From the NCBI GenBank assembly GCA_938003985.1, contig CALKWZ010000076.1, positions 11,045 to 75,044 on the forward strand: a DNA stretch of 64,000 bases, in the 5' to 3' direction. This document shows positions 27,170-57,021 of this stretch, piece after piece; position 1 is the first letter of the stretch, and the number at the start of each line of letters is the position of its first letter. Source of the DNA: an uncultured Verrucomicrobiota bacterium (lineage in GTDB: Bacteria > Verrucomicrobiota > Kiritimatiellia > CAIQIC01 > Lenti-01). The notes under the pieces were generated by a model. That model ran no database searches. It saw only the letters and a list, made by a program, of their open reading frames with translations, and had not been told where the DNA came from. The position numbers and the translations under genes are program-made.

Positions 27170-27375
27170 ACGGAAGATCGCACCCGCGGGGCGCCGTTCG
27201 CTTTGTGCCGGCGCCGCATCCGCATTCGGCATCCAAACAGAATCCTAAACAACGGGCGATCTGCCGGTCTTCATTTTCTGGCGTTTTCCGCTAGACCCGT
27301 CCGGTGGGTTCCACTAGATTGGGCCTTCGAAATCTAGCGGTATTTTTCAATACGCATCGAAGAGAGGTAAATGCC

Positions 27376-27945
27376 ATGGCATCGTTCATGAAGGAACTGA
27401 AAGCGGAAATCGCCCGGCTGGCCCGGAAGGAAATCAAAAAGGAAGTCGCGCCCGTCCAGCGGATCAGCGCGTCGCGGCGCGGCATGATCGCCGACCTGCG
27501 CCGCCAGGTGGCCGCGCTGCAGCGCGACGTGGCGGACCTGCGCCGGGCCCTGGCCCGGGGCGGCCCGCTGCCGCTGGCGGTCCAGCCCGCGGAAATCGCC
27601 GCCGGCGACGACGGCCGCAAGGGCTTCTGGATCACGGGCAAGGGCGTGCGCAAGTTGCGCCTGCGTCTGGGCCTGACGCAGACTGAATTCGCGGCGCTGG
27701 CGAACGTCAGCGGCCAGACCGTCGTCAACTGGGAAGGCACGTCGGGCAAGATCCCGCTGCGCCGCAAGGATTCCGCCGCGCGCCTGCAGGAAATCCGCAA
27801 GATGAAGAAGCGCGACCTGAAGAAAGCCGCGGAAGCCAAAGCCCCGGCCAAGGCCAAAGCCAAGGCCAAGGCCAAAAAGGCCAAAGCCAAAAAAGCCAAG
27901 GCCCCGGCTCCGGCCAAGGTCGAAGCCGCCCCCAAGGCCGAATAG
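27376..27945 (+). CDS. XRE-type HTH protein with N-terminal coiled coil and histone-H1-like Lys/Ala C-terminal tail
   Basis: MASFMKELKAEIARLARKEIKK.. (coiled coil). HTH LRLRLGLTQTEFAALANVSGQTVVNWEG. Tail KKAAEAKAPAKAKAKAKAKKAKAKKAKAPAPAKVEAAPKAE. Confidence 0.7.
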   Translation: MASFMKELKAEIARLARKEIKKEVAPVQRISASRRGMIADLRRQVAALQRDVADLRRALARGGPLPLAVQPAEIAAGDDGRKGFWITGKGVRKLRLRLGLTQTEFAALANVSGQTVVNWEGTSGKIPLRRKDSAARLQEIRKMKKRDLKKAAEAKAPAKAKAKAKAKKAKAKKAKAPAPAKVEAAPKAE

Positions 27946-29109: not shown

Positions 29110-29487
29110 GGCCTCAACCTAGCCGCCTCGCCCGCCCCCCGGCAAGCCGAAACCCACCCGCCGTCCCCGCCCCCGCCGCAACCGAAACGCCGGGGTGGGG
29201 GCGCCGCGGCTCGCCACGGGCGCTCGTGATGCGACGAAAATTCCAGAATACAAACCTGTGCCGCCCCCACGAAATTATAAGACAGTAAACTTATGCGTCA
29301 TTTTGTGGAAATTTTCCGCATAACTTTCATTCAACGCTTTTACTGGTGTTCTCGCCCAATGCCTGCTAGTATCAGATTTGAGATGAAAGAAAATCCGGTT
29401 CATTCTCAAAAGACATGGATCTAGTTGCCGGAATATCTGCCAACAGGCACGGCAATAATGAGTTATAATTATTATCTTGCATAATCG

Positions 29488-29501
29488 GTATCAATTGATA
29501 C
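29488..29501. promoter_or_regulatory. Perfect 14-bp palindrome GTATCAATTGATAC immediately upstream of the toxin-like gene (candidate operator)
   Basis: Read directly. It ends 4 nt before the ATG at 29506, and AT-rich -10-like hexamers (TATAAT at 29464..29469) lie just upstream. Confidence 0.4.
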
Positions 29502-29505
29502 TCTC

Positions 29506-29859
29506 ATGAGCAGAAACTATGAGCAACCGATTCCGGCCGCATGGCGAAAAGCCGTTGTCAAGGTGCTTCGAAGCGGCGACAAGACTCGAATTATCAGCAC
29601 GGTAGAGTCGAAAAATGATTGGGAAAGCACGTTTCCGGAGAGTTGGTGGCATGACCGCCCTGAAGCCATGGCCCGGGCTTTGGATGTCGATGGCATTGTC
29701 GGAAAACATGTCACGGATATGGATCCGCCCTGCGAAGCCTATGCGTTTTGGTTCCACTACGAAAAACGACAGATGTACGGAAAAATCGGGCTCTTGCCCA
29801 ATGGCGACGTAGTCATCATCTTTTCGAGCCACGTTCCGCGAAAAGGGAAGAAATTATGA
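29506..29859 (+). CDS. Small toxin-like protein (tentatively MqsR-like) of a TA/TAC module
   Basis: 117 aa. The C-terminal ..YAFWFHYEKRQMYGKIGLLPNGDVVIIFSSH resembles the MqsR C-terminal strand pattern (..VYLKITVIHDVLIVSFKEK). It sits first in the operon, and its stop overlaps the next ATG (ATGA). The call rests on memory-based similarity only. Confidence 0.45.
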   Translation: MSRNYEQPIPAAWRKAVVKVLRSGDKTRIISTVESKNDWESTFPESWWHDRPEAMARALDVDGIVGKHVTDMDPPCEAYAFWFHYEKRQMYGKIGLLPNGDVVIIFSSHVPRKGKKL

Positions 29860-30386
29860 AGAAACGGAAAACCCCGCCTGTCCCGGGTTGGATGGCCATC
29901 ACCACGAAGCAGCCGGTGTTCATTCCCAATGCCACCGGCTACGGCGTGGCCGAAACCGTCATGCAGGAGGTTCCCGCCTGGAAGGATCCCAAGACGGGCC
30001 AAATCTACTTGGATGGAACGGCCCATGAGATTCTGGATGCGGTCAAAGCGCGGCACCTCGGAATTCTGCTGCCGGAGCAATTGCGGGATTTGCGGAATTC
30101 CATCGGGATGACCCAGAAGAAGATGGCCGAGTTGCTGCAGTTGGGGGAAAAGACCTGGACGCGCTGGGAAACCGGTGCGGAGCGGCCGTCCCGATCCATG
30201 AATCTTCTCCTGTGCGCCCTCCACGAGGGCAAAATCGATGTCGGCTATCTCCGCTCCAAGCGGCAGATGCCGGCGCTCGATGAGCTTGGACGATGGGAGA
30301 TGCCCGAACAAAAAGCAGGGGTTTCCTATCAGACTCCTAAACCAACTCTGGGAGAGCCCGATGAAAGCAAAACTGGCGCCGCTTAA
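29856..30386 (+). CDS. XRE-HTH antitoxin-like protein (MqsA-like, zinc-less) with C-terminal extension
   Basis: HTH region LLPEQLRDLRNSIGMTQKKMAELLQLGEKTWTRWETGAERPSRSMNLLLCAL parallels the MqsA HTH (..LSLTQKEAAEIFGGGVNAFSRYEKGNAQPHPSTIKLLRVL). An extra tail of about 45 aa follows the HTH (GYLRSKRQMPALDELGRWEMPEQKAGVSYQ..). Confidence 0.6.
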   Translation: MKKRKTPPVPGWMAITTKQPVFIPNATGYGVAETVMQEVPAWKDPKTGQIYLDGTAHEILDAVKARHLGILLPEQLRDLRNSIGMTQKKMAELLQLGEKTWTRWETGAERPSRSMNLLLCALHEGKIDVGYLRSKRQMPALDELGRWEMPEQKAGVSYQTPKPTLGEPDESKTGAA

Positions 30387-30846
30387 GTGCCATGGATACT
30401 TCGTTACGGGGTTGATGATTGCGGCGAATCCCGAATACGACAAAAAGAAACCGAACGCCCTGCTGTTTGGTGATCTGCAAATCGATTCGACGGCAAAGCC
30501 GGTATCCAAGAAGTTCGACGGAAGACTTTGGCAAGTCATCCTGCAGATGCAGCAGAACGTTGGGCCGGACAAAAACACGCCCTACAACTTTTCGGTCACA
30601 GTGGTGGGCCACTTCGAGGTTCATCCAAAGTATCCGGTCGGAAAAGCGCAGCAATTGGTGGAGATAAATGGCAGTTCAATTCTATACAGTTCTGCCCGGC
30701 AAATTTTAAGAGATGCCATGCACAACGGCCCGTTTCCGGCGCTTGACTTGCCGACGGTCAGCTTCTTTGATGCCGAGCCCGATTTGCCGGCGAAGAAAAT
30801 CGTAGCGGAAGCCTCGGCGAACTGCGGCGATAAAACCGGAAAATAA
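30361..30846 (+). CDS. SecB-like chaperone
   Basis: 161 aa. ..FSVTVVGHFEV..GKAQQLVEINGSSILYSSARQILRDAMHNGPFPALDLPTVSF parallels E. coli SecB ..[50 protein letters not shown]. Its start overlaps the antitoxin 3' end by 26 nt. Confidence 0.7.
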   Translation: MKAKLAPLKCHGYFVTGLMIAANPEYDKKKPNALLFGDLQIDSTAKPVSKKFDGRLWQVILQMQQNVGPDKNTPYNFSVTVVGHFEVHPKYPVGKAQQLVEINGSSILYSSARQILRDAMHNGPFPALDLPTVSFFDAEPDLPAKKIVAEASANCGDKTGK

Positions 30847-30876
30847 GGCCGCGTCCGCAATAAAAGGCCCCCCCCT

Positions 30877-33800
30877 ATGTCGAAGAGGAAAAAGCAGATC
30901 GCAAACGCTGAAGGTCAACTCAATCTGGCCCTGACGGGCGATACTTTTGCTGGGCCTGCTGAAACCAACGGCGTCTTTTCTCTCGCTTACCTGTTAAGAC
31001 AATTGGAGCAGTCGCCATCTTTCGCCGCCCAATCCGATGCGGCGGTCGCTTATGAATTGGTCTGCCGGTTGTATCGGCAACACGGCGTGGCTCTTAAAAG
31101 GCAGAATGAAGCCTTTACCTGTTCCACTTTTCTCGAACCTGTCCTGGACTCGCTCGGCTGGCATCGGATTCCCCAGCAATCTATGCCGAGCAGCATGGAG
31201 ACCCGGAAGCGTCCGGACTATTGTCTTGTCACCACTGAGCAAGCCTTCATGGAGGCATCGCGTGCCGATGCCGTGAAGTTATTTCAGCTTAGCGCCACCG
31301 TCTTGGAAGCTAAGAAATGGGGGCACCCTTTGGACCGGATGTCCTCCGGAGAAACCCCGGGTTGGTTCCCTAGCCAGCAAATCCAAGACTATTTGAATCA
31401 CGCGAAAGACGCGACGGGGCATCGGTTCTTCGACTGGGCCATCCTCACGAACGGCGACGAATGGCGTCTTTACTGTGAACAATCCGCCGTGGGGGCCTAC
31501 TTCAGTTTCCATCTCGTTCGCGATGGCCAGTTGTGTACGGAGGACGAGTTCAGGCTTTTCTTCACGCTTTTCCGGGCTGCCGCCTTTGATCGCTCGCCGG
31601 AAGGCCTTTGTTTTCTCGATTCCGTGCGCGAGCAGTCGTTGCGGGCGCAGGGCGAACTAGAGCTAAATCTACGCAAGCGCATCTTTGGCGTTCTTGAAGA
31701 CCTTGGCACTGCGTTCGCAAATCGGGAAGAAAACGGCTTGCACGAGGCTGATTACCCCAAGGTCTACGAAGTTTCCTTGGTCTTTCTATATCGCCTTTTG
31801 TTTGTTCTCTATGCGGAGAGCCGGGGGCTCCTGCCCGTTCGCGAGTATGGCGCAGGGGCGAATCGCCGTTATCTAAACGATTTTTCCTTGGCCCGCTTGG
31901 CTGGCAAGTTGCGCGACAGTTCCCATTATCAAGACAATGCGTTTTGCCAGCTATACGAGGAATTGCTGCACTTGTTTGAGCTGATTAACGGCACGTTTCC
32001 TTCGCGAAATGCGTCTCTCAAGGTCACCCGCTACAACGGCGGGTTGTTTAGTCTGCGGGCGCACGAAGAAATTGGACGTTGGCGGATCGGGGACCGGGAC
32101 TTGGCCGATATTCTCAGGCAATTGATATATGTCCAGCCGCCCGCTCGTTCCCGCGAGGCTCAACGACAGATCAGCACTCGGGAAGCGATTGATTACAGCA
32201 CGCTGGAAGTCCGCCAGCTCGGCGACATCTACGAGGGCCTGCTGGGCGCGCACTTCGAAAAAGTCGAAGATCGCCTTGAGTTGCGGAACGAGAACGGCGA
32301 AAACCATCGCTCCGGGATATTCTACACGCCCGATTGGATCGTCCAGTTCCTCGTAAACGAAACCTTGTTGCCGTTGCTGTCAGAAATCGAGCGGTCGCCC
32401 GACGTCCAGCGAGCCTTGCAGGCTCGTTCAGAGGAGCGAAAACGGGACAATTCTTTCGCGTTCGGCGTGCTCAACCTCAATCTCGTCGATCCCGCCATGG
32501 GCAGCGGCCATTTTCTGGTTCGCGCGACGGAATGGCTGGCCGACCACATCATGAGCCATCCCACGACCCAGCCGATGACGATGCAAATCATTGGTCAGGG
32601 TCAAGGCCAAATCAGCCGGGAAGAAATTATCGCGCGCGGCAAGATTCCCGTGGCCCCCGGAATTTCCCAGGAACAGGCGGAGAAGGCTTATTGGCGCCGC
32701 CGCGTCGTAGAGGCCTGCATCCATGGCGTAGATGTCAATCCCATGGCAGTCGAGTTGGCGAAACTCTCGCTGTGGCTGACTTGCATCGCGGCCGACGAAC
32801 CCCTCAATTTCCTAGACCACCACTTGCGAAAAGGCAATGCCTTGCTGTCGGTCGCCCCCGATGAGCTCAAGTTGGCGCCGGATGGACAGGAGACGTTCGA
32901 TCTCGGGGAAAGGCTTCACGACGTTCTCTCCGGCATTATCCGCGACACGCTTGCCATCGAAAGGCAACCTAGCACGGAAATGGAAGCCGTGAAGGATAAG
33001 GAACGGCTATGGAAGGATTTGAGGTTGCGGCTAAAACCTTTCCTTGATCTGTCGGACCTCTGGATTTCCATGTTGGATGGAGTGCCCCTGGTCGAGATGG
33101 AATATCTGTCCGTTGCACGTCTGTTGCTGGGCGACCAGACTCTTACAGGACCAGAAAAGCGAGATGCCAAGCGGCGCCTGGATTCCATTGCTGTAGCGCT
33201 AGCGTCGAAGAAGGCGGACCTGATGCCCTTCCACTGGCGGTTGGAATTCCCGGATGTTTTCTACGACGAAAGCGGGGAGGTATCGCCCCCGAACCGATGC
33301 GGATTCGATGCCATTCTCGGCAATCCCCCGTATGTGTCCATCCACACGGCGAAAGAGATTGGCAACCGCAAGATGCGCGATGCCTTGGAAAAACGCGCGG
33401 GCTATCTGGAAGACCTCTATGTCCATTTCACCGATCTTGGTTTCCAACTACTGCGCAAGGGCGGCGGGTTCGGGTTCATTGTATCGGACACTTTCTTTAC
33501 GCTGGCCTCCAAGTTCCGCATGCGAGAAATACTCCAGAGGAATTCGCTCGACTGGCTCGGTCAATGCGATCCCTTCGATGCCACGGTAGACGCAGCGGTT
33601 TTCGTTGCCCGCAAGCAGGTGCCCGAGGCAAACCATCGCTTCCGCTTTGTTCAAGCCAGGCCCCGCAAGCGACCCGACGGTACTCGCACCGTGCCCGATG
33701 AGAACTTGGAAAAACTGTCGCAAACCAATGCTCTTGCATGGAATGAACCCGCAACGCTGACGCCGTTCGGCGATGTCTTCCATGCCACGGTGGCCGAGTT

Positions 33801-35352
33801 GCGGCTTCATGAAATTCCGCTTTCCTTGCATGCCGCGGCCCACAAAAAGGTATTTTTCGAGCCCCGTCCTGGCACTCTGCACCTTTTCGACCGCTTCAAC
33901 GCCAATGTGAAGGAGCTTGTTGCGGAATGGTGGGAGAAGATTGAAGACTCTCGCGAATTCAGCGCCAACCTTCCTGAAATCCAAGCCTATCACCGCACCT
34001 TGCGCCCCGGCGACATCTCGCTAGTCGGGCTTGTGGCGGAAGGTGGGCAAGGAATGCGCACGGCCAACAACGCCCGTTTTCTAGCCTATCTCGACGGCAC
34101 CCCGCAGGCAGAGGAAATCAAGGAGAAGTCGCGGGCATGGTCTGCCTCTTGGCTGGCGAACGAACGGGTTGGATCAACTTTCCGCGAACTTTTGCAACAA
34201 GCGGGTGGGGACGCCGCTCGACCGACTGCCAACCGGCCCGCATGGGAAGCCGCCGTGCATGGTCTTCGCGAGCGATTCACGCCCGCCCAACTGGGCTTGG
34301 GCCGAACCTTCCTTTTCCGCATTGCGCCGCCGGACCTCGTTGCCGGGGCAGAGGATTTCGCCTATTCCTTCTTGCGCCGCAAGGCGGAACTCCTTGTGCA
34401 TTGGCAGGGACGGTCGGAATTCATGGGCTTTTGGGACGACAAGATGGAGATTGGCGGGAATTTTGTGGCCCATTCGGACTGTCGCAAGGCCAAGACCATT
34501 TCGGACGCGGATTTCTGCGAGCTTTGCCAGCACCTGCAGCTTTGGGTCAGACATGAAAACGCCGTGAGGAAACCGTCGCAGCGCATTCCTAAAGAAGCCA
34601 TAGGCTTGCGATCTAGTGAAGACTACTCCGATCCGGCTGACGCTCCGCGAATCGCCGCGATTTATAATGGCCTTTTGGGCCGCGCCCAATATGTCCCATT
34701 CCGGAAGGGGGACCCCGAAGGAAGCCGGTGGCTGGACAACGAACCGCTCTTTTGCGATTGGTCAAAATCATCTGTGGATTGGCTCTCAACAGATAATTCT
34801 GCACGCTGGCAGGGTCATCGATTCTTTTTCCTTCCAGGTGTTACATGGACCGCCGTAGCTAATCATGTCGCGCTTAAATCAAGGTTCCAAGAGCCATGCG
34901 TATTTGATGCCGATAGTATGAGGCTTACTCCGTTACCAAGCACTCTTTCGGCTGAAGCATTCGTGGCGATTCTTAACAGCGATGTCTTCAGTTACTTCAA
35001 GATGCGATTCGTTCAACACACGCAAAAGTGGGAAATCGGGAATTTGCGTCAGATGCCCATTGTGATGCCAAATAAGAGGCAACAGGACTCGCTTGCGAAA
35101 CTGGCCTCGCTTGCGATGGCCGCAAAACGGCATGAGTTTTCGGGAACATCCCCCGACAATGATTTGGTTGCGCGTGTTCGCGTAATTAGTGCGCGGCTGC
35201 GTGCGGATGGGCCAGATTATTTGCAGCCCAGCGCCCAAGGATTATTGCTGGCAGGCCCCAACGATTGTCTGGAAGTGATCGAAAAAGCCATCAACTGGGA
35301 AGCCGAAAAACTCTACGGCGTTGAAGGCCTTGGCCCATTCGACGAATTTTAA
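30877..35352 (+). CDS. Type IIG restriction-modification fusion enzyme (N-terminal PD-(D/E)xK nuclease + gamma-class N6-adenine MTase + PglX/TaqI_C-like specificity region)
   Basis: 1491 aa.
- N-terminal HsdR_N-like nuclease motifs RKRPDYCLV..VLEAKKWG..QIQDY..ILTNGDEWRLY.
- MTase motif I VDPAMGSGHFLV and motif IV ILGNPPYVS.
- C-terminal YVPFRKGDPEGSRWL..FFFLPGVTWT..ILNSDVFSYF..EIGNLRQMPIV, as seen in PglX/MmeI-like enzymes. Confidence 0.8.
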   Translation: MSKRKKQIANAEGQLNLALTGDTFAGPAETNGVFSLAYLLRQLEQSPSFAAQSDAAVAYELVCRLYRQHGVALKRQNEAFTCSTFLEPVLDSLGWHRIPQQSMPSSMETRKRPDYCLVTTEQAFMEASRADAVKLFQLSATVLEAKKWGHPLDRMSSGETPGWFPSQQIQDYLNHAKDATGHRFFDWAILTNGDEWRLYCEQSAVGAYFSFHLVRDGQLCTEDEFRLFFTLFRAAAFDRSPEGLCFLDSVREQSLRAQGELELNLRKRIFGVLEDLGTAFANREENGLHEADYPKVYEVSLVFLYRLLFVLYAESRGLLPVREYGAGANRRYLNDFSLARLAGKLRDSSHYQDNAFCQLYEELLHLFELINGTFPSRNASLKVTRYNGGLFSLRAHEEIGRWRIGDRDLADILRQLIYVQPPARSREAQRQISTREAIDYSTLEVRQLGDIYEGLLGAHFEKVEDRLELRNENGENHRSGIFYTPDWIVQFLVNETLLPLLSEIERSPDVQRALQARSEERKRDNSFAFGVLNLNLVDPAMGSGHFLVRATEWLADHIMSHPTTQPMTMQIIGQGQGQISREEIIARGKIPVAPGISQEQAEKAYWRRRVVEACIHGVDVNPMAVELAKLSLWLTCIAADEPLNFLDHHLRKGNALLSVAPDELKLAPDGQETFDLGERLHDVLSGIIRDTLAIERQPSTEMEAVKDKERLWKDLRLRLKPFLDLSDLWISMLDGVPLVEMEYLSVARLLLGDQTLTGPEKRDAKRRLDSIAVALASKKADLMPFHWRLEFPDVFYDESGEVSPPNRCGFDAILGNPPYVSIHTAKEIGNRKMRDALEKRAGYLEDLYVHFTDLGFQLLRKGGGFGFIVSDTFFTLASKFRMREILQRNSLDWLGQCDPFDATVDAAVFVARKQVPEANHRFRFVQARPRKRPDGTRTVPDENLEKLSQTNALAWNEPATLTPFGDVFHATVAELRLHEIPLSLHAAAHKKVFFEPRPGTLHLFDRFNANVKELVAEWWEKIEDSREFSANLPEIQAYHRTLRPGDISLVGLVAEGGQGMRTANNARFLAYLDGTPQAEEIKEKSRAWSASWLANERVGSTFRELLQQAGGDAARPTANRPAWEAAVHGLRERFTPAQLGLGRTFLFRIAPPDLVAGAEDFAYSFLRRKAELLVHWQGRSEFMGFWDDKMEIGGNFVAHSDCRKAKTISDADFCELCQHLQLWVRHENAVRKPSQRIPKEAIGLRSSEDYSDPADAPRIAAIYNGLLGRAQYVPFRKGDPEGSRWLDNEPLFCDWSKSSVDWLSTDNSARWQGHRFFFLPGVTWTAVANHVALKSRFQEPCVFDADSMRLTPLPSTLSAEAFVAILNSDVFSYFKMRFVQHTQKWEIGNLRQMPIVMPNKRQQDSLAKLASLAMAAKRHEFSGTSPDNDLVARVRVISARLRADGPDYLQPSAQGLLLAGPNDCLEVIEKAINWEAEKLYGVEGLGPFDEF

Positions 35353-35374
35353 CGGCCACTGATGACCGGAGATG

Positions 35375-35942
35375 TTTATAGGCGCGCAGCTCATCGAGGG
35401 GGAAGTCGCCAGGGGTGCGTTCGTAGGTCCAGAAGGCAGAGTCGTTGAGGGGGGCGAGTTTGTACGAGGTGAAATTGCGCGATGCTGTTGCCGAGTGTAT
35501 ATCAATCCCGCCTGACTGCATTATCAAGGTAATCAAGGATTCTCCGATTGGTATATTTGCCGGCAAGCTCGAACAGGTGCATGCCGCGCACGTATTCAAC
35601 GATTTCGCCGGTTGAGAAGGGCGGAGTTGCCTGATCTTCACAATCGACTTGCCAGTCGATGCCTTCGGTTGTTTGGAGTCAGATGGCGATCATCTCGTAC
35701 TGCTCCAGCTTCTCGACGTGGGCAAGAATGAGGGCATCGATCGTATGCTCGTAGACGTCCCACAAGACGGACTGCTCGTATTGGATTTGGACGCAAACCT
35801 CTTCCCACGTGTTTTTGAGACCCGTGTCGTCGCCAAGTGCAAGGGAATCGGTCAATTTTCGTAGCTCACGAGCGGTTTTTCGGGCGATGGCGGACGACAC
35901 CCGCAGGGCCAACGCGCGCACAACCTGTTCTTCGACATTCAA
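35375..35942 (-). pseudogene. Degraded gene: in-frame TGA plus a +1 frameshift, with a RAMA-like C-terminal remnant paralogous to the neighbouring gene
   Basis: The reading frame from TTG 35942 (..NVEEQVVRALALRVSS..EKLEQYEMIAI) hits TGA at 35679..35681. It then continues in the same frame as LQTTEGIDWQVDCEDQATPPFSTGEIVEYVRGMHLFELAGKYTNRRILDYLDNAVRRD, stopping at 35502. A shifted frame continues IDIHSATASRNFTSYKLAPLNDSAFWTYERTPGDFPLDELRAYK. This aligns with the C-terminus of the 35945..36637 protein (VRRDGTIRYAGKLYNSPSLAA..NGWEFWNYQRAPGDWVPLDALRS). Confidence 0.4.
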
Positions 35943-35944
35943 CG

Positions 35945-36637
35945 CTAGCTTCTCAGCGCGTCGAGGGGGACCCAGTCGCCGGGGGCGCGCTGGTAGTTCC
36001 AGAATTCCCAACCGTTGCAGGTGGGGCGTTTGCAGGCGGCGGCGGCGGCGAGCGAGGGCGAGTTGTATAGCTTGCCGGCGTAGCGGATGGTGCCGTCGCG
36101 GCGCACGGTGGCCTTGAGGATCTTGCCCTTGAAATGGGCGCGGAGGGGAAACGCCGTGGTGACGTATTTGGCGAGGGGCGGGGTGCGGCCATCTTTCTGT
36201 TCCTTGGCGGCTTTGCGGCGAGCGGGATCGGGCGCGGTGAGCATGTCGAAAACGGAATCTTCGAAATCCCGCTTCATGTCGCGCAGGAAGATGGGGCGGA
36301 GGTCGCTGGACCGGGCGAATTGTCCCTTCTGCTTGTTGCCGGCGGGCTTGACGGTGCGGAGGATGAGGGCTTCCAGCTCGCGCAAGTGGCGGTCGCCGAT
36401 GGTGAGGTAGACGGAGAAGCGGTCCCAGGAGTCGGCGTGACGGTCGCGGAGGTGCTGCTTGAGGCGGTTGCGGAGGTTGGTGGCGAGGCCGACGTAGTAG
36501 AGCTTGCCCTTGCGGTAGAGGACGTAGATGCCGTGGCGCCCCCGCACGTACTGGCGGATGATGTTCTGGTATTCCTCGAGGGCTGCGCGGGAGATGTTTT
36601 CGAGGTGCTGGCAAACGAGCTGGGCGTTGCGTTTCAT
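35945..36637 (-). CDS. GIY-YIG nuclease-domain protein with C-terminal RAMA/DUF4357-like domain
   Basis: GIY-YIG core RHGIYVLYRKGKLYYVGLATNLRNRLKQH. C-terminal ..GKLYNSPSLAAAAACKRPTCNGWEFW resembles the restriction-enzyme/methylase-associated (RAMA) domain signature. Confidence 0.65.
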   Translation of the reverse strand: MKRNAQLVCQHLENISRAALEEYQNIIRQYVRGRHGIYVLYRKGKLYYVGLATNLRNRLKQHLRDRHADSWDRFSVYLTIGDRHLRELEALILRTVKPAGNKQKGQFARSSDLRPIFLRDMKRDFEDSVFDMLTAPDPARRKAAKEQKDGRTPPLAKYVTTAFPLRAHFKGKILKATVRRDGTIRYAGKLYNSPSLAAAAACKRPTCNGWEFWNYQRAPGDWVPLDALRS

Positions 36638-36754
36638 ACGGATGAGAAGTCTAGCGCGCCGCGCGGATGCTGAAAAGCGGAAACCGCGTGTCGCGATTCC
36701 CGGAGAACGAGCTCTCGCGGTGGCAACGAGGGGAAGCGGTCGGGAGGCTCAGAA

Positions 36755-36847
<93 letters not shown>

Positions 36848-36937
36848 GCAAAATCACATCAACTCATATCACAGAGCTTTCCCCGCCCCGGCCAAGGCCG
36901 GGGCGAGGCCTCGCCCCGCTGTCATCAGCGGGGCGGG

Positions 36938-36976
36938 CAAGCGGGCGCGATCGGCCACTCCGCCACCTCTCCGCAA
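36938..36976 (-). repeat. 39-bp perfect duplicate of the 5' half of tRNA-Ser (plus 4 nt of 5' flank)
   Basis: caagcgggcgcgatcggccactccgccacctctccgcaa occurs at 36813..36851 (inside the tRNA) and again at 36938..36976. The 86 bp between the copies is GC-rich hairpin sequence. Confidence 0.9.
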
Positions 36977-56328: not shown

Positions 56329-57021
56329 TCAGCGGACCCGACACCTTGTGGCGGGTACGCTGGACCCGCTTGTTGGCCCTTTTTTGTTCCCAACGATCAT
56401 ATACTGCATGTCATCATATCGTTTAGCAGTGCTCAATAATCGGTCATAAGTCATGATCTCAATATCATGTTCATATCCATAACTGGATCGGATTATGTCG
56501 TTTTGTTCTGACAGTGCCGTTCTACGACCGATCATAATATAGTACTTGTAGGTTATATATGTACGCGGATCGCGTAGATACTTGCCAGAGAAGGTGAGGG
56601 GTTCTTTGTCACGTGGTTTATTGAACACGTCGGTAGTTCGCGCTGCGTCAGCAAGCTGATTCCGAAAATCTGTTGGATTAGCATGTACATATCTTGCCCA
56701 GTCGCCGATTTGTTTTTGCGCATGCCGGAGTCGTGGAGATTCGATACCTTTAGAATTATATATGGCGTCGTCAATTGGTTCTAGCTCAAGGAAGTGAACC
56801 TTCCAGCCAGTCGAATATCCCTGAAGAAGCATAAAGTCGCATCTAAGCGATTTTCCAATGCCAAATTCTGGCAATACATAGTGCGCGTGTCCCCCACAGT
56901 CAAAAAACGCCCAATAGAGAAATTCTGGATTTGCCTTCAAAAATCGCGCAATGCCGCGTTCCCCCGTCGAAGAGGCGAGCGCTTTCGCTACAATAGAAGT
57001 GTTATTCATAATTGTGGCCAA
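56329..57021 (-). CDS. DUF4263-type (Shedu SduA nuclease-domain-like) protein, minimal form
   Basis: ..RFLKANPEFLYWAFF..HYVLPEFGIGKSLRCDFMLLQGYSTGWKVHFLELEPIDDAIYNSKG.ESPRLRHAQKQIGDW matches the DUF4263 pattern (FL..nP.ll..; D-F-hl; hhhhElK-like strand; A..Q). The canonical Lys after E-x is not obvious. TTG start at 57021, with an alternative ATG at 57009. Confidence 0.5.
   Translation of the reverse strand: MATIMNNTSIVAKALASSTGERGIARFLKANPEFLYWAFFDCGGHAHYVLPEFGIGKSLRCDFMLLQGYSTGWKVHFLELEPIDDAIYNSKGIESPRLRHAQKQIGDWARYVHANPTDFRNQLADAARTTDVFNKPRDKEPLTFSGKYLRDPRTYITYKYYIMIGRRTALSEQNDIIRSSYGYEHDIEIMTYDRLLSTAKRYDDMQYMIVGNKKGPTSGSSVPATRCRVR

Follow-up and report, generated by a model that had tools for sequence, protein, structure and literature searches.

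A toxin–antitoxin–chaperone cassette next to a Type IIG restriction enzyme in a genomic island of an uncultured Verrucomicrobiota bacterium, and its recurrence beside methylation-based defence genes

Restriction systems are the commonest first-line defence. Accessory toxins can be coupled to such systems, as covered in a review for cases such as PrrC in EcoprrI (PMC12707154), and toxin–antitoxin–chaperone (TAC) modules are phage defences in which the chaperone serves as the sensor (PMC9519451, PMC11618068, bioRxiv 10.1101/2024.02.24.581848). Chaperone addiction is described in PMC5105189, which is also cited in PMC9519451, and chaperone-associated "MqsA-like" antitoxins with a partial MqsA domain have already been catalogued by Sala et al. 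(PMC3581621). Here, we analysed a 64,000-nt stretch of DNA (hereafter the window) from an uncultured Verrucomicrobiota bacterium (contig CALKWZ010000076.1), in which a TAC with a SecB-like chaperone lies 30 nt upstream of the gene for a Type IIG restriction-modification (R-M) enzyme.

We consider it probable, at roughly 0.6, that this locus is a modular two-layer anti-phage island made up of a stand-alone Type IIG enzyme and a self-regulated TAC cassette of ~1.37 kb. On this view, the TAC would serve abortive infection or addiction, is recurrently embedded in restriction operons and is probably transcribed together with them. One TAC family lies repeatedly gene against gene with at least five unrelated kinds of restriction/methylase operon, and the partners swap while the arrangement stays. 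The kind of TAC, the Type IIG family and the embedding of toxins in restriction loci are already known; here, the toxin is divergent and the antitoxin zinc-less.

Four genes on one strand and their relatives

Within 29506-35352, the window carries four genes on the + strand, a toxin candidate, an MqsA-like helix-turn-helix (HTH) antitoxin, a SecB-like chaperone and the Type IIG enzyme, which are given here together with the control region and the spacer:

29477-29505, + strand: TAC control region, with a TTGCAT box at 29477-29482 and a palindrome at 29488-29501
29506-29859, + strand: toxin candidate, 117 aa, predicted MqsR/RelE-like fold, in no sequence family of Pfam, NCBIfam, PHROGs or PADLOC
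29856-30386, + strand: antitoxin, 176 aa, MqsA-like HTH, C-terminal extension of ~45 aa
30361-30846, + strand: SecB-like chaperone, 161 aa, PF02556 above the gathering score
30847-30876, + strand: spacer, 30 nt, terminator-free
30877-35352, + strand: Type IIG (Eco57I/MmeI-like) R-M enzyme, 1491 aa

The order and shared orientation of the four genes, as described in an earlier note on this DNA, are borne out by the open reading frame coordinates. The same applies to the 30-nt terminator-free gap reported there between the SecB-like stop (30846) and the enzyme start (30877), as a scan of the + strand revealed no terminator-like site in the spacer 30847-30876. Across 30815-30905, the predicted RNA fold was not above that of shuffled sequences (z = +0.52). 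The antitoxin ATG overlaps the toxin stop (ATGA), and the reading frames of antitoxin and chaperone overlap by 26 nt; the chaperone starts at the ATG at 30361 and not at the longest-frame start at 30238, M1 being invariant in an alignment of 32 homologues. With three tightly coupled, co-directional genes in the order toxin, antitoxin and SecB-like chaperone, the cassette has the organisation of a TAC.

The junction between TAC and enzyme is real, since it is spanned by contigs of three independent metagenome DNA runs (X1, 30572-31333; X2, 30432-31026; X3, 30787-31323), which rules out an assembly chimera at this position. A tract of eight cytosines (C8) at 30868-30875, 1 nt ahead of the enzyme ATG, is likewise C8 in X1, whereas the X2 and X3 contigs show a one-base deletion at 30868 that leaves C7 and a spacer of 29 instead of 30 nt. 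This C7/C8 tract could be slippage-prone and modulate translation of the restriction enzyme. The TAC-to-cargo spacers of the related loci L110, L004 and L017 are 29 nt long.

The surroundings of related TACs were surveyed in 14 distinct contexts, all related loci (L with a number) being metagenomic contigs. In 7/14 contexts, the TAC lies on the same strand and -4 to +56 nt from a restriction or methyltransferase gene, with five kinds of methylation-based system represented and a spacing of 29-30 nt in four cases (window, L110, L004 and L017). These seven contexts (window to L121) open the following list; two with the TAC convergent with defence genes (L118, L011-16) come next, and last are three of the five that have no restriction or methylation-based defence genes nearby:

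Window: TAC, 30 nt, Type IIG enzyme
L110: serine recombinase, TAC, 29 nt, Type IIG enzyme (86% aa identical to that of the window)
L004 and L017: TAC, 29 nt, Type I hsdR-S-M, RAMA gene, tRNA-Ser
L021 and L109: Hma system, with hmaA (SNF2 helicase), TAC, hmaB (DUF1156 methylase)
L111-113: Res-like helicase/nuclease of 877 aa, 56 nt, TAC, 56 nt, N6/N4 methyltransferase
L020: Type IIG enzyme of a different family, 37 nt, TAC
L121: Type IIG enzyme of a different family, 38 nt, TAC
L118: TAC convergent with a Type I system
L011-16: TAC convergent with PDC-S11, Nmad3 and HNH genes plus a RAMA gene
L022: major facilitator superfamily (MFS) transporter after the TAC
L025/26: insertion sequence (IS) elements beside the TAC
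L019: short contig

Restriction genes make up roughly one gene in 100. By this rough yardstick, which stands in for a matched control family, seven tight same-strand adjacencies among 14 contexts are far more than expected from random placement. The arrangement of TAC and restriction genes is more than chance, because both the order and the 29-30 nt spacing recur in L110 and, with other restriction systems, in L004 and L017. The earlier note had made its case depend on the pairing not being unique to this genome, and L110 indeed shows the same four-gene order. Distant TACs of two other types also adjoin restriction genes, namely a HigB type in L043 and a HicB type in L027, the latter (29% SecB identity) just upstream of a PstI-like restriction pair.

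In L021 (8131-8148) as well as in L109, the toxin ATG follows the hmaA stop after a gap of only 18 nt, and at the other end hmaB and the SecB stop share 4 nt; in both loci, the cassette is thus very compactly inserted within the Hma (helicase-methylase-ATPase) operon. In L114-L116, we observed an antitoxin-chaperone pair of this TAC family that is missing the toxin gene and lies beside an ATP-binding cassette (ABC) transporter, similar to the toxin-less "AC" modules of mycobacteria.

Comparison of near-identical backgrounds revealed how the cassette and its neighbour are exchanged. L004 matches the window at 97% nt identity over 29305-30851, and homology stops 5 nt past the SecB stop; the cargo is then wholly different, until homology (95%) resumes from 35955 through the RAMA gene into the tRNA-Ser (35955-36658 on the right flank). 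Between the same TAC and the same right flank, one strain thus carries a Type I system and another a Type IIG enzyme. The tRNA at the end of L004 is that of the window; L017, with its L004-like arrangement of TAC, 29 nt and Type I system, has a tRNA-Ser(TGA) at the same position.

In L110, the alignment with the window runs from 29476, where the conserved control region starts, to 35355, shortly beyond the stop codon of the enzyme, with 61-64% aa identity for the TAC proteins and 86% for the enzyme. At fourfold-degenerate sites, the TAC genes are only 28-39% identical (132 sites), i.e., essentially saturated, compared to 52% for the enzyme (625 sites). TAC and enzyme thus have separate histories of different age, and the order of TAC and Type IIG enzyme either arose twice or persisted through the replacement of one partner. 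On the sequence level, these comparisons show the TAC and the enzyme to be separately exchangeable modules rather than a dedicated pair.

The enzyme-side survey leads to the same two modules. It comprised 81 loci (L001-L003 and 78 genome loci), and in none of them (0/81) was the TAC of the window found upstream of the enzyme homologue, including relatives at 89%, 73% and 68% identity. The closest of these, in L001 (89%), has no TAC and is separated by 428 nt from the VWA-domain gene upstream of it; downstream of it lie a different toxin–antitoxin (TA)-like pair (HigB-like plus HTH/M78) and then a RAMA gene. Only L043 (52% enzyme identity) has a SecB-like gene nearby; located 184 nt downstream of the enzyme, this gene is part of another TAC, with a Gp49/HigB-like toxin and an HTH_3 antitoxin. 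Based on 0/81 loci with the TAC upstream, the enzyme family needs neither the TAC nor its HTH protein.

The components of the cassette and the enzyme

The toxin candidate gave no match in Pfam, NCBIfam, PHROGs, PADLOC or PDB sequences. Among 63 members of its family, no Pfam match (including MqsR_toxin) was obtained, and an hhalign comparison with E. coli MqsR was not significant (probability 0.25-1%). A full scan of 1.84 billion representatives placed 149 representatives (at 50% identity) in this small family, most members being about 110-125 aa long, with Y91, K93, S107 and H109 near-invariant. The AlphaFold2 model built from 63 sequences (predicted local distance difference test score, pLDDT, 95.7) has E. 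coli MqsR, chain 3hi2_B, as its top PDB match (probability 1.00, template modelling (TM) scores 0.59/0.68, E 7e-3, root-mean-square deviation 3.7 Å, 105 columns), followed by RelE, HigB2 and YoeB. The protein is therefore predicted to have the alpha/beta fold of the MqsR/RelE type, while by sequence it does not belong to the MqsR family. Because the confident model best matches the MqsR fold and sequence searches remained empty, we regard the 117-aa protein as a toxin candidate with a predicted MqsR/RelE fold from an undescribed sequence family. A first AlphaFold2 model based on 12 close homologues (pLDDT 77.7) was dropped in favour of the 63-sequence model, and its Foldseek matches (e.g., ketosteroid isomerases, E > 0.04) were meaningless.

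The antitoxin scores 36 bits for HTH_31; its 52 bits for TIGR03830 (MqsA family) fall short of the cut-off (61.8). Its HTH is of the Xre type, and a stretch of 47 aa is 32% identical to E. coli MqsA. Members of the MqsA family combine such an HTH at the C-terminus with an N-terminal zinc domain carrying two CxxC motifs; here, the HTH is similar, and both CxxC motifs are absent from the alignment with 11 homologues and MqsA. The protein extends ~45 aa past the end of E. coli MqsA, and this conserved C-terminal extension, with a conserved RW, Y158 and a terminal AA, is a candidate chaperone-addiction region. Overall, the antitoxin matches the "MqsA-like" class of chaperone-associated antitoxins of Sala et al. 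(PMC3581621).

The chaperone scores 32.4 bits for PF02556 (gathering cut-off 26), and the domain is present in 35/35 homologues. On plasmids, the only match to the chaperone was a distant SecB of the housekeeping type, and the toxin had none; an IMG/VR scan of viral contigs with the chaperone alignment found one distant relative.

The palindrome GTATCAATTGATAC at 29488-29501 is perfect over 14 bp and ends 4 nt ahead of the toxin ATG. It was present upstream of the toxin ATG in 12/12 other TAC loci examined, in 11 of them exactly and in L021 with one mismatch. Its distance to the ATG is 4-5 nt throughout, except for L025, the most distant TAC locus (~32-36% protein identity), where it lies further upstream. 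A TTGCA/TTGAC/TTGAA box precedes it in 11/12 of these loci, usually together with an A-rich stretch. The palindrome is retained where the TAC sits behind another gene (L020, L021, L111), and no second copy with up to 3 mismatches exists in the 64-kb window, including the region near the enzyme start. It thus goes with every TAC, whatever gene follows, and not with the enzyme. We consider GTATCAATTGATAC a candidate operator of the HTH antitoxin, TA-autoregulatory in appearance; as an operator that belongs to the TAC, it argues against a dedicated role of the antitoxin as a controller of the enzyme.

TAC and enzyme are likely co-transcribed, judging from the short terminator-free spacer and from the sister locus L017, where RNA-derived contigs of two metatranscriptome studies cross the junction from SecB to hsdR unbroken. 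Given read-through of the spacer, the enzyme would come indirectly under the autoregulation of the TAC.

The enzyme matches Eco57I (PF07669, E 1e-24) and PADLOC REase_MTase_IIG (E 5e-46). Nuclease and N6-adenine methyltransferase domains lie in one polypeptide, as expected for Type IIG: an N-terminal PD-(D/E)xK nuclease motif is followed by a gamma-class N6-adenine methyltransferase and a PglX/BrxX-like C-terminal region. The motifs PD...EAK (P113, D114, E144, A145, K146), DPAMGSGHF (S-adenosylmethionine binding) and NPPY (catalytic) are invariant in 30 homologues. Searched as a single sequence, the enzyme had no match in the PDB; the profile matched BrxX, CamA, BseCI and M.TaqI, restricted to the methyltransferase core and the BrxX-like segment. 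Its 3767 homologues are mostly about 1490-1500 aa long and mostly found in Verrucomicrobiota, Lentisphaerota, Kiritimatiellia and related uncultured lineages. Within this very large family of Type IIG enzymes of the Eco57I type, it is an ordinary representative. The best PADLOC match is DrmMI (E 2e-87), confined to the methyltransferase core (residues 477-873). Membership in DISARM or BREX was rejected, as the island, which contains only the TAC, the enzyme, a 146-aa pseudogene and a GIY-YIG/RAMA gene, has none of the partners DrmA/B/C/D or PglZ/BrxC/BrxL.

The island and its surroundings

The four genes lie in an island of low GC content that is bordered by a lipase gene on one side and by a tRNA-Ser on the other. 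Its further features are:

29236-36650 (approx.), no strand: low-GC genomic island from the composition profile, ~55% GC compared to ~69% in the flanks
35379-35447, - strand: remnant of a second RAMA-domain gene, derived from its 3' end (blastn, 78% and 84% to the 3' ends of the RAMA genes of L004 and L011)
35505-35942, - strand: homologue of a 146-aa gene (tblastn, 85% identity over 146 aa, one internal stop)
35945-36637, - strand: GIY-YIG nuclease plus RAMA-domain protein, 230 aa (PF18755, PF01541, PADLOC PDC-S14)
36757-36847, - strand: tRNA-Ser(GGA) (ARAGORN), 3' end toward the island

The 69-nt RAMA-gene relic sits directly past the enzyme stop, which suggests that the enzyme arrived with its own RAMA gene, as in L001, through recombination inside RAMA genes. 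The homologue of the 146-aa gene has no Pfam family and is likely a pseudogene. In L011, this gene follows the RAMA gene, and codon 88, an in-frame stop in the window copy, encodes tryptophan.

The GIY-YIG/RAMA gene is convergent with the enzyme and forms the conserved right flank of the island; its homologues adjoin the TAC or the cargo in L004, L017, L011, L020 and L001. The gene is frequently found next to a tRNA-Ser, and PDC-S14 is a PADLOC candidate. The protein may be a defence gene product itself or mark a recombination anchor.

We looked for an integrase and, where the island begins on the left, for an att-like direct repeat of the 3' end of the tRNA-Ser; neither was found. A perfect 39-nt direct repeat (36813-36851 and 36938-36976) copies the 5' half of the tRNA-Ser(GGA) as far as the anticodon loop, and its second copy starts 91 nt upstream of where the tRNA begins. 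The duplication is polymorphic, as the intervening 125 nt are missing from one X2 contig; it may be the scar of a past integration.

Outside the island, a second low-GC patch (49% GC) at 56329-57021 on the - strand encodes a 230-aa Shedu-type protein (SduA_C, PF14082, E 8e-14), a further defence gene within the same 64-kb window. Just outside the island border, 27304-27945 on the + strand encodes a 213-aa protein with an HTH (HTH_3) and a lysine/alanine-rich C-terminal tail, AKAKAKAKKAKAKKAKA, which may be a histone-like or nucleoid-associated regulator.

Competing explanations and known systems

For the two-layer island, we propose the following mode of action. The antitoxin, probably together with the toxin, would bind the palindrome, whose conservation is observed, and thereby autoregulate the cassette. 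By analogy with characterised TACs, the chaperone would hold the C-terminal extension of the antitoxin and guard it against aggregation and proteolysis, until a phage protein or stress titrates the chaperone and the antitoxin is lost. The freed toxin of predicted MqsR fold, presumably an RNase, would then halt translation and lead to abortive infection or to post-segregational killing of cells without the island, which would make it hard to lose. Starting at the TAC promoter, transcription would pass the 30-nt spacer and make the enzyme a fourth cistron that inherits TAC autoregulation, and the Type IIG enzyme would restrict incoming unmethylated DNA. As the locus comparisons show, the TAC and the GIY-YIG/RAMA gene are the conserved flanks of a slot by the tRNA-Ser in which the restriction cargo is exchanged, and TACs of this family have come to lie, more than once, within or directly beside operons of unrelated methylation-based defences. 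The addiction or abortive layer for the restriction gene, one of two readings offered in the earlier note, fits these comparative data: the modules are exchangeable, yet the TAC is repeatedly found upstream of, inside or downstream of restriction/methylase operons.

Several points weigh against this proposal. The sample of TAC contexts is small, weighted to long contigs and without a matched control TA family, and 5/14 contexts (L007-9, L114-116, L022, L025/26 and L019) are without nearby restriction or methylation-based defence genes. Both strands of L017 are covered from end to end by the metatranscriptome contigs, which may therefore reflect carry-over of DNA or transcripts that overlap. 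RNA of the window's own variant consists of short fragments at 90-97% identity, none of which crosses the junction, and a sigma-70 scan revealed no + strand promoter for the TAC or the enzyme, although its consensus may not be that of the host. Finally, the toxin resembles MqsR by predicted fold (E 7e-3) and not by sequence.

Of the alternatives, neutral juxtaposition survives best, although we regard it as doubtful. It states that independent transcription units were joined by recombination in a defence-island hotspot and that the spacing is functionally meaningless. Defence genes and TA modules generally cluster in islands (PMC12707154), what lies between the TAC and the RAMA gene has clearly been exchanged, the enzyme family works elsewhere without a TAC, and the RAMA 3'-end relic by the enzyme stop indicates recombination. 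However, same-strand spacings of -4 to +56 nt in seven independent contexts, and of 29-30 nt in four, are difficult to reconcile with it, as such gaps scarcely fit a separate promoter. The order of TAC and Type IIG enzyme with two TAC lineages of different age further suggests that it was re-created or retained.

A bolder idea, which we consider unlikely, is that this TAC family has specialised in accompanying methylation-based immunity, its members being guardians that fire the toxin when restriction is bypassed or inhibited, and maybe transcriptional heads as well. If true, a cassette with its own promoter and operator would have been selectively captured in Type I, Type IIG, Hma and Res/Mod operons; as a transcriptional head, the TAC might make newly acquired restriction cargo both expressible and addictive.

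We judge it distinctly improbable that the TAC is wired to its neighbouring restriction system in the manner of PrrC and EcoprrI, such that a phage which blocks or evades restriction (e.g., with an anti-restriction protein) diverts the chaperone or the antitoxin and the toxin acts as a back-up. The 7/14 same-strand contexts at -4 to +56 nt with five kinds of methylation-based system are in line with this guardian function, as are the position of some TACs inside operons between a helicase/nuclease gene and a methylase gene and the two further TAC families that adjoin restriction genes, and PrrC and PARIS provide precedents for guarding restriction systems (PMC12707154). However, the same TAC (97% nt identity) serves Type I and Type IIG neighbours and also occurs with no restriction gene nearby (MFS transporter, IS elements), which makes a specific protein-protein link to the enzyme unlikely. 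Moreover, with its own antitoxin and chaperone, the TAC does not require the enzyme for silence.

It is very improbable that the HTH antitoxin is a dedicated, C-protein-like controller that delays or limits expression of the nuclease on entering a new host, the second reading of the earlier note: the HTH gene does lie upstream on the same strand, ahead of a terminator-free 30-nt spacer, and would bring the enzyme indirectly under antitoxin autoregulation if both are co-transcribed, but it is found upstream of the enzyme in 0/81 homologue loci (the 89%, 73% and 68% relatives included), and the single operator (29488-29501) lies at the TAC 5' end, away from the enzyme start, and is conserved with TACs that have unrelated genes behind them. 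Nor does a Type IIG enzyme, as a single polypeptide, require separate timing of methylase and nuclease.

Returning to the two-layer island, a functional coupling of its parts would make the locus a natural, testable model of a cutting layer and a suicide layer stacked in one transcript, and it would show how defence cargo becomes addictive and mobile. For TA biology, the locus offers a toxin family of predicted MqsR fold and a strongly conserved 14-bp candidate operator. The claim of the earlier note that the architecture is undescribed holds only in a narrow sense: no link of SecB-like TACs to restriction operons was found among the papers that mention both, nor was a description of recurrent partner swapping, whereas toxins in restriction loci and phage defence by TACs are well established.

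Comparison with known systems places each part of the island. Like Eco57I, MmeI, DrmMI of DISARM and PglX/BrxX of BREX, the enzyme is a single polypeptide in which an N-terminal PD-(D/E)xK motif is combined with a gamma-class N6-adenine methyltransferase (NPPY) and a C-terminus similar to PglX/BrxX; unlike DrmMI and PglX, it stands alone in the island, without DISARM or BREX partners. A small HTH gene upstream of a nuclease gene is also found in the C-protein R-M systems PvuII, Esp1396I and AhdI, where the two are co-transcribed. In these systems, the HTH protein is conserved with the nuclease and a C-box lies ahead of the controlled gene; here, no C-box lies by the nuclease start, the HTH protein is part of a TA pair, and enzyme homologues occur without it.

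The island further resembles the P2/P4 hotspots and, in E. coli, the immigration control region with its Type I, Type IV and TA genes, in which conserved flanks enclose variable defence cargo. In this case, the flanks are the TAC on the left and the GIY-YIG/RAMA gene plus tRNA-Ser on the right, with different cargo in near-identical backgrounds. In contrast to those hotspots, one of the flanks serves as a cassette for defence or addiction in its own right and apparently supplies the promoter, and there is no integrase or phage backbone.

With M. tuberculosis HigBA1-SecB(TA), E. coli MqsRAC (strain C496_10), HigBAC and CmdTAC, the cassette shares the tricistronic order of toxin, antitoxin and chaperone with a SecB-like third gene, as well as an antitoxin C-terminal extension beyond the DNA-binding domain. 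It differs from known TACs in a toxin that belongs to no sequence family and matches MqsR by predicted fold, and in an antitoxin without the two CxxC motifs. The described E. coli TACs are located on prophages and that of M. tuberculosis in a large island, none being reported as embedded in a restriction operon. The closest parallel to this embedding is PrrC in the Type IC locus EcoprrI (and also RloC), where a translation-targeting toxin is encoded co-directionally inside or against an R-M operon as a second abortive layer; correspondingly, the TAC adjoins restriction or methylase genes on the same strand in seven contexts and is internal to the Hma and the Res/methylase operons. PrrC, however, is a single protein kept latent by the restriction complex, whereas the toxin of this island comes with its own antitoxin and chaperone, and its restriction neighbour is interchangeable.

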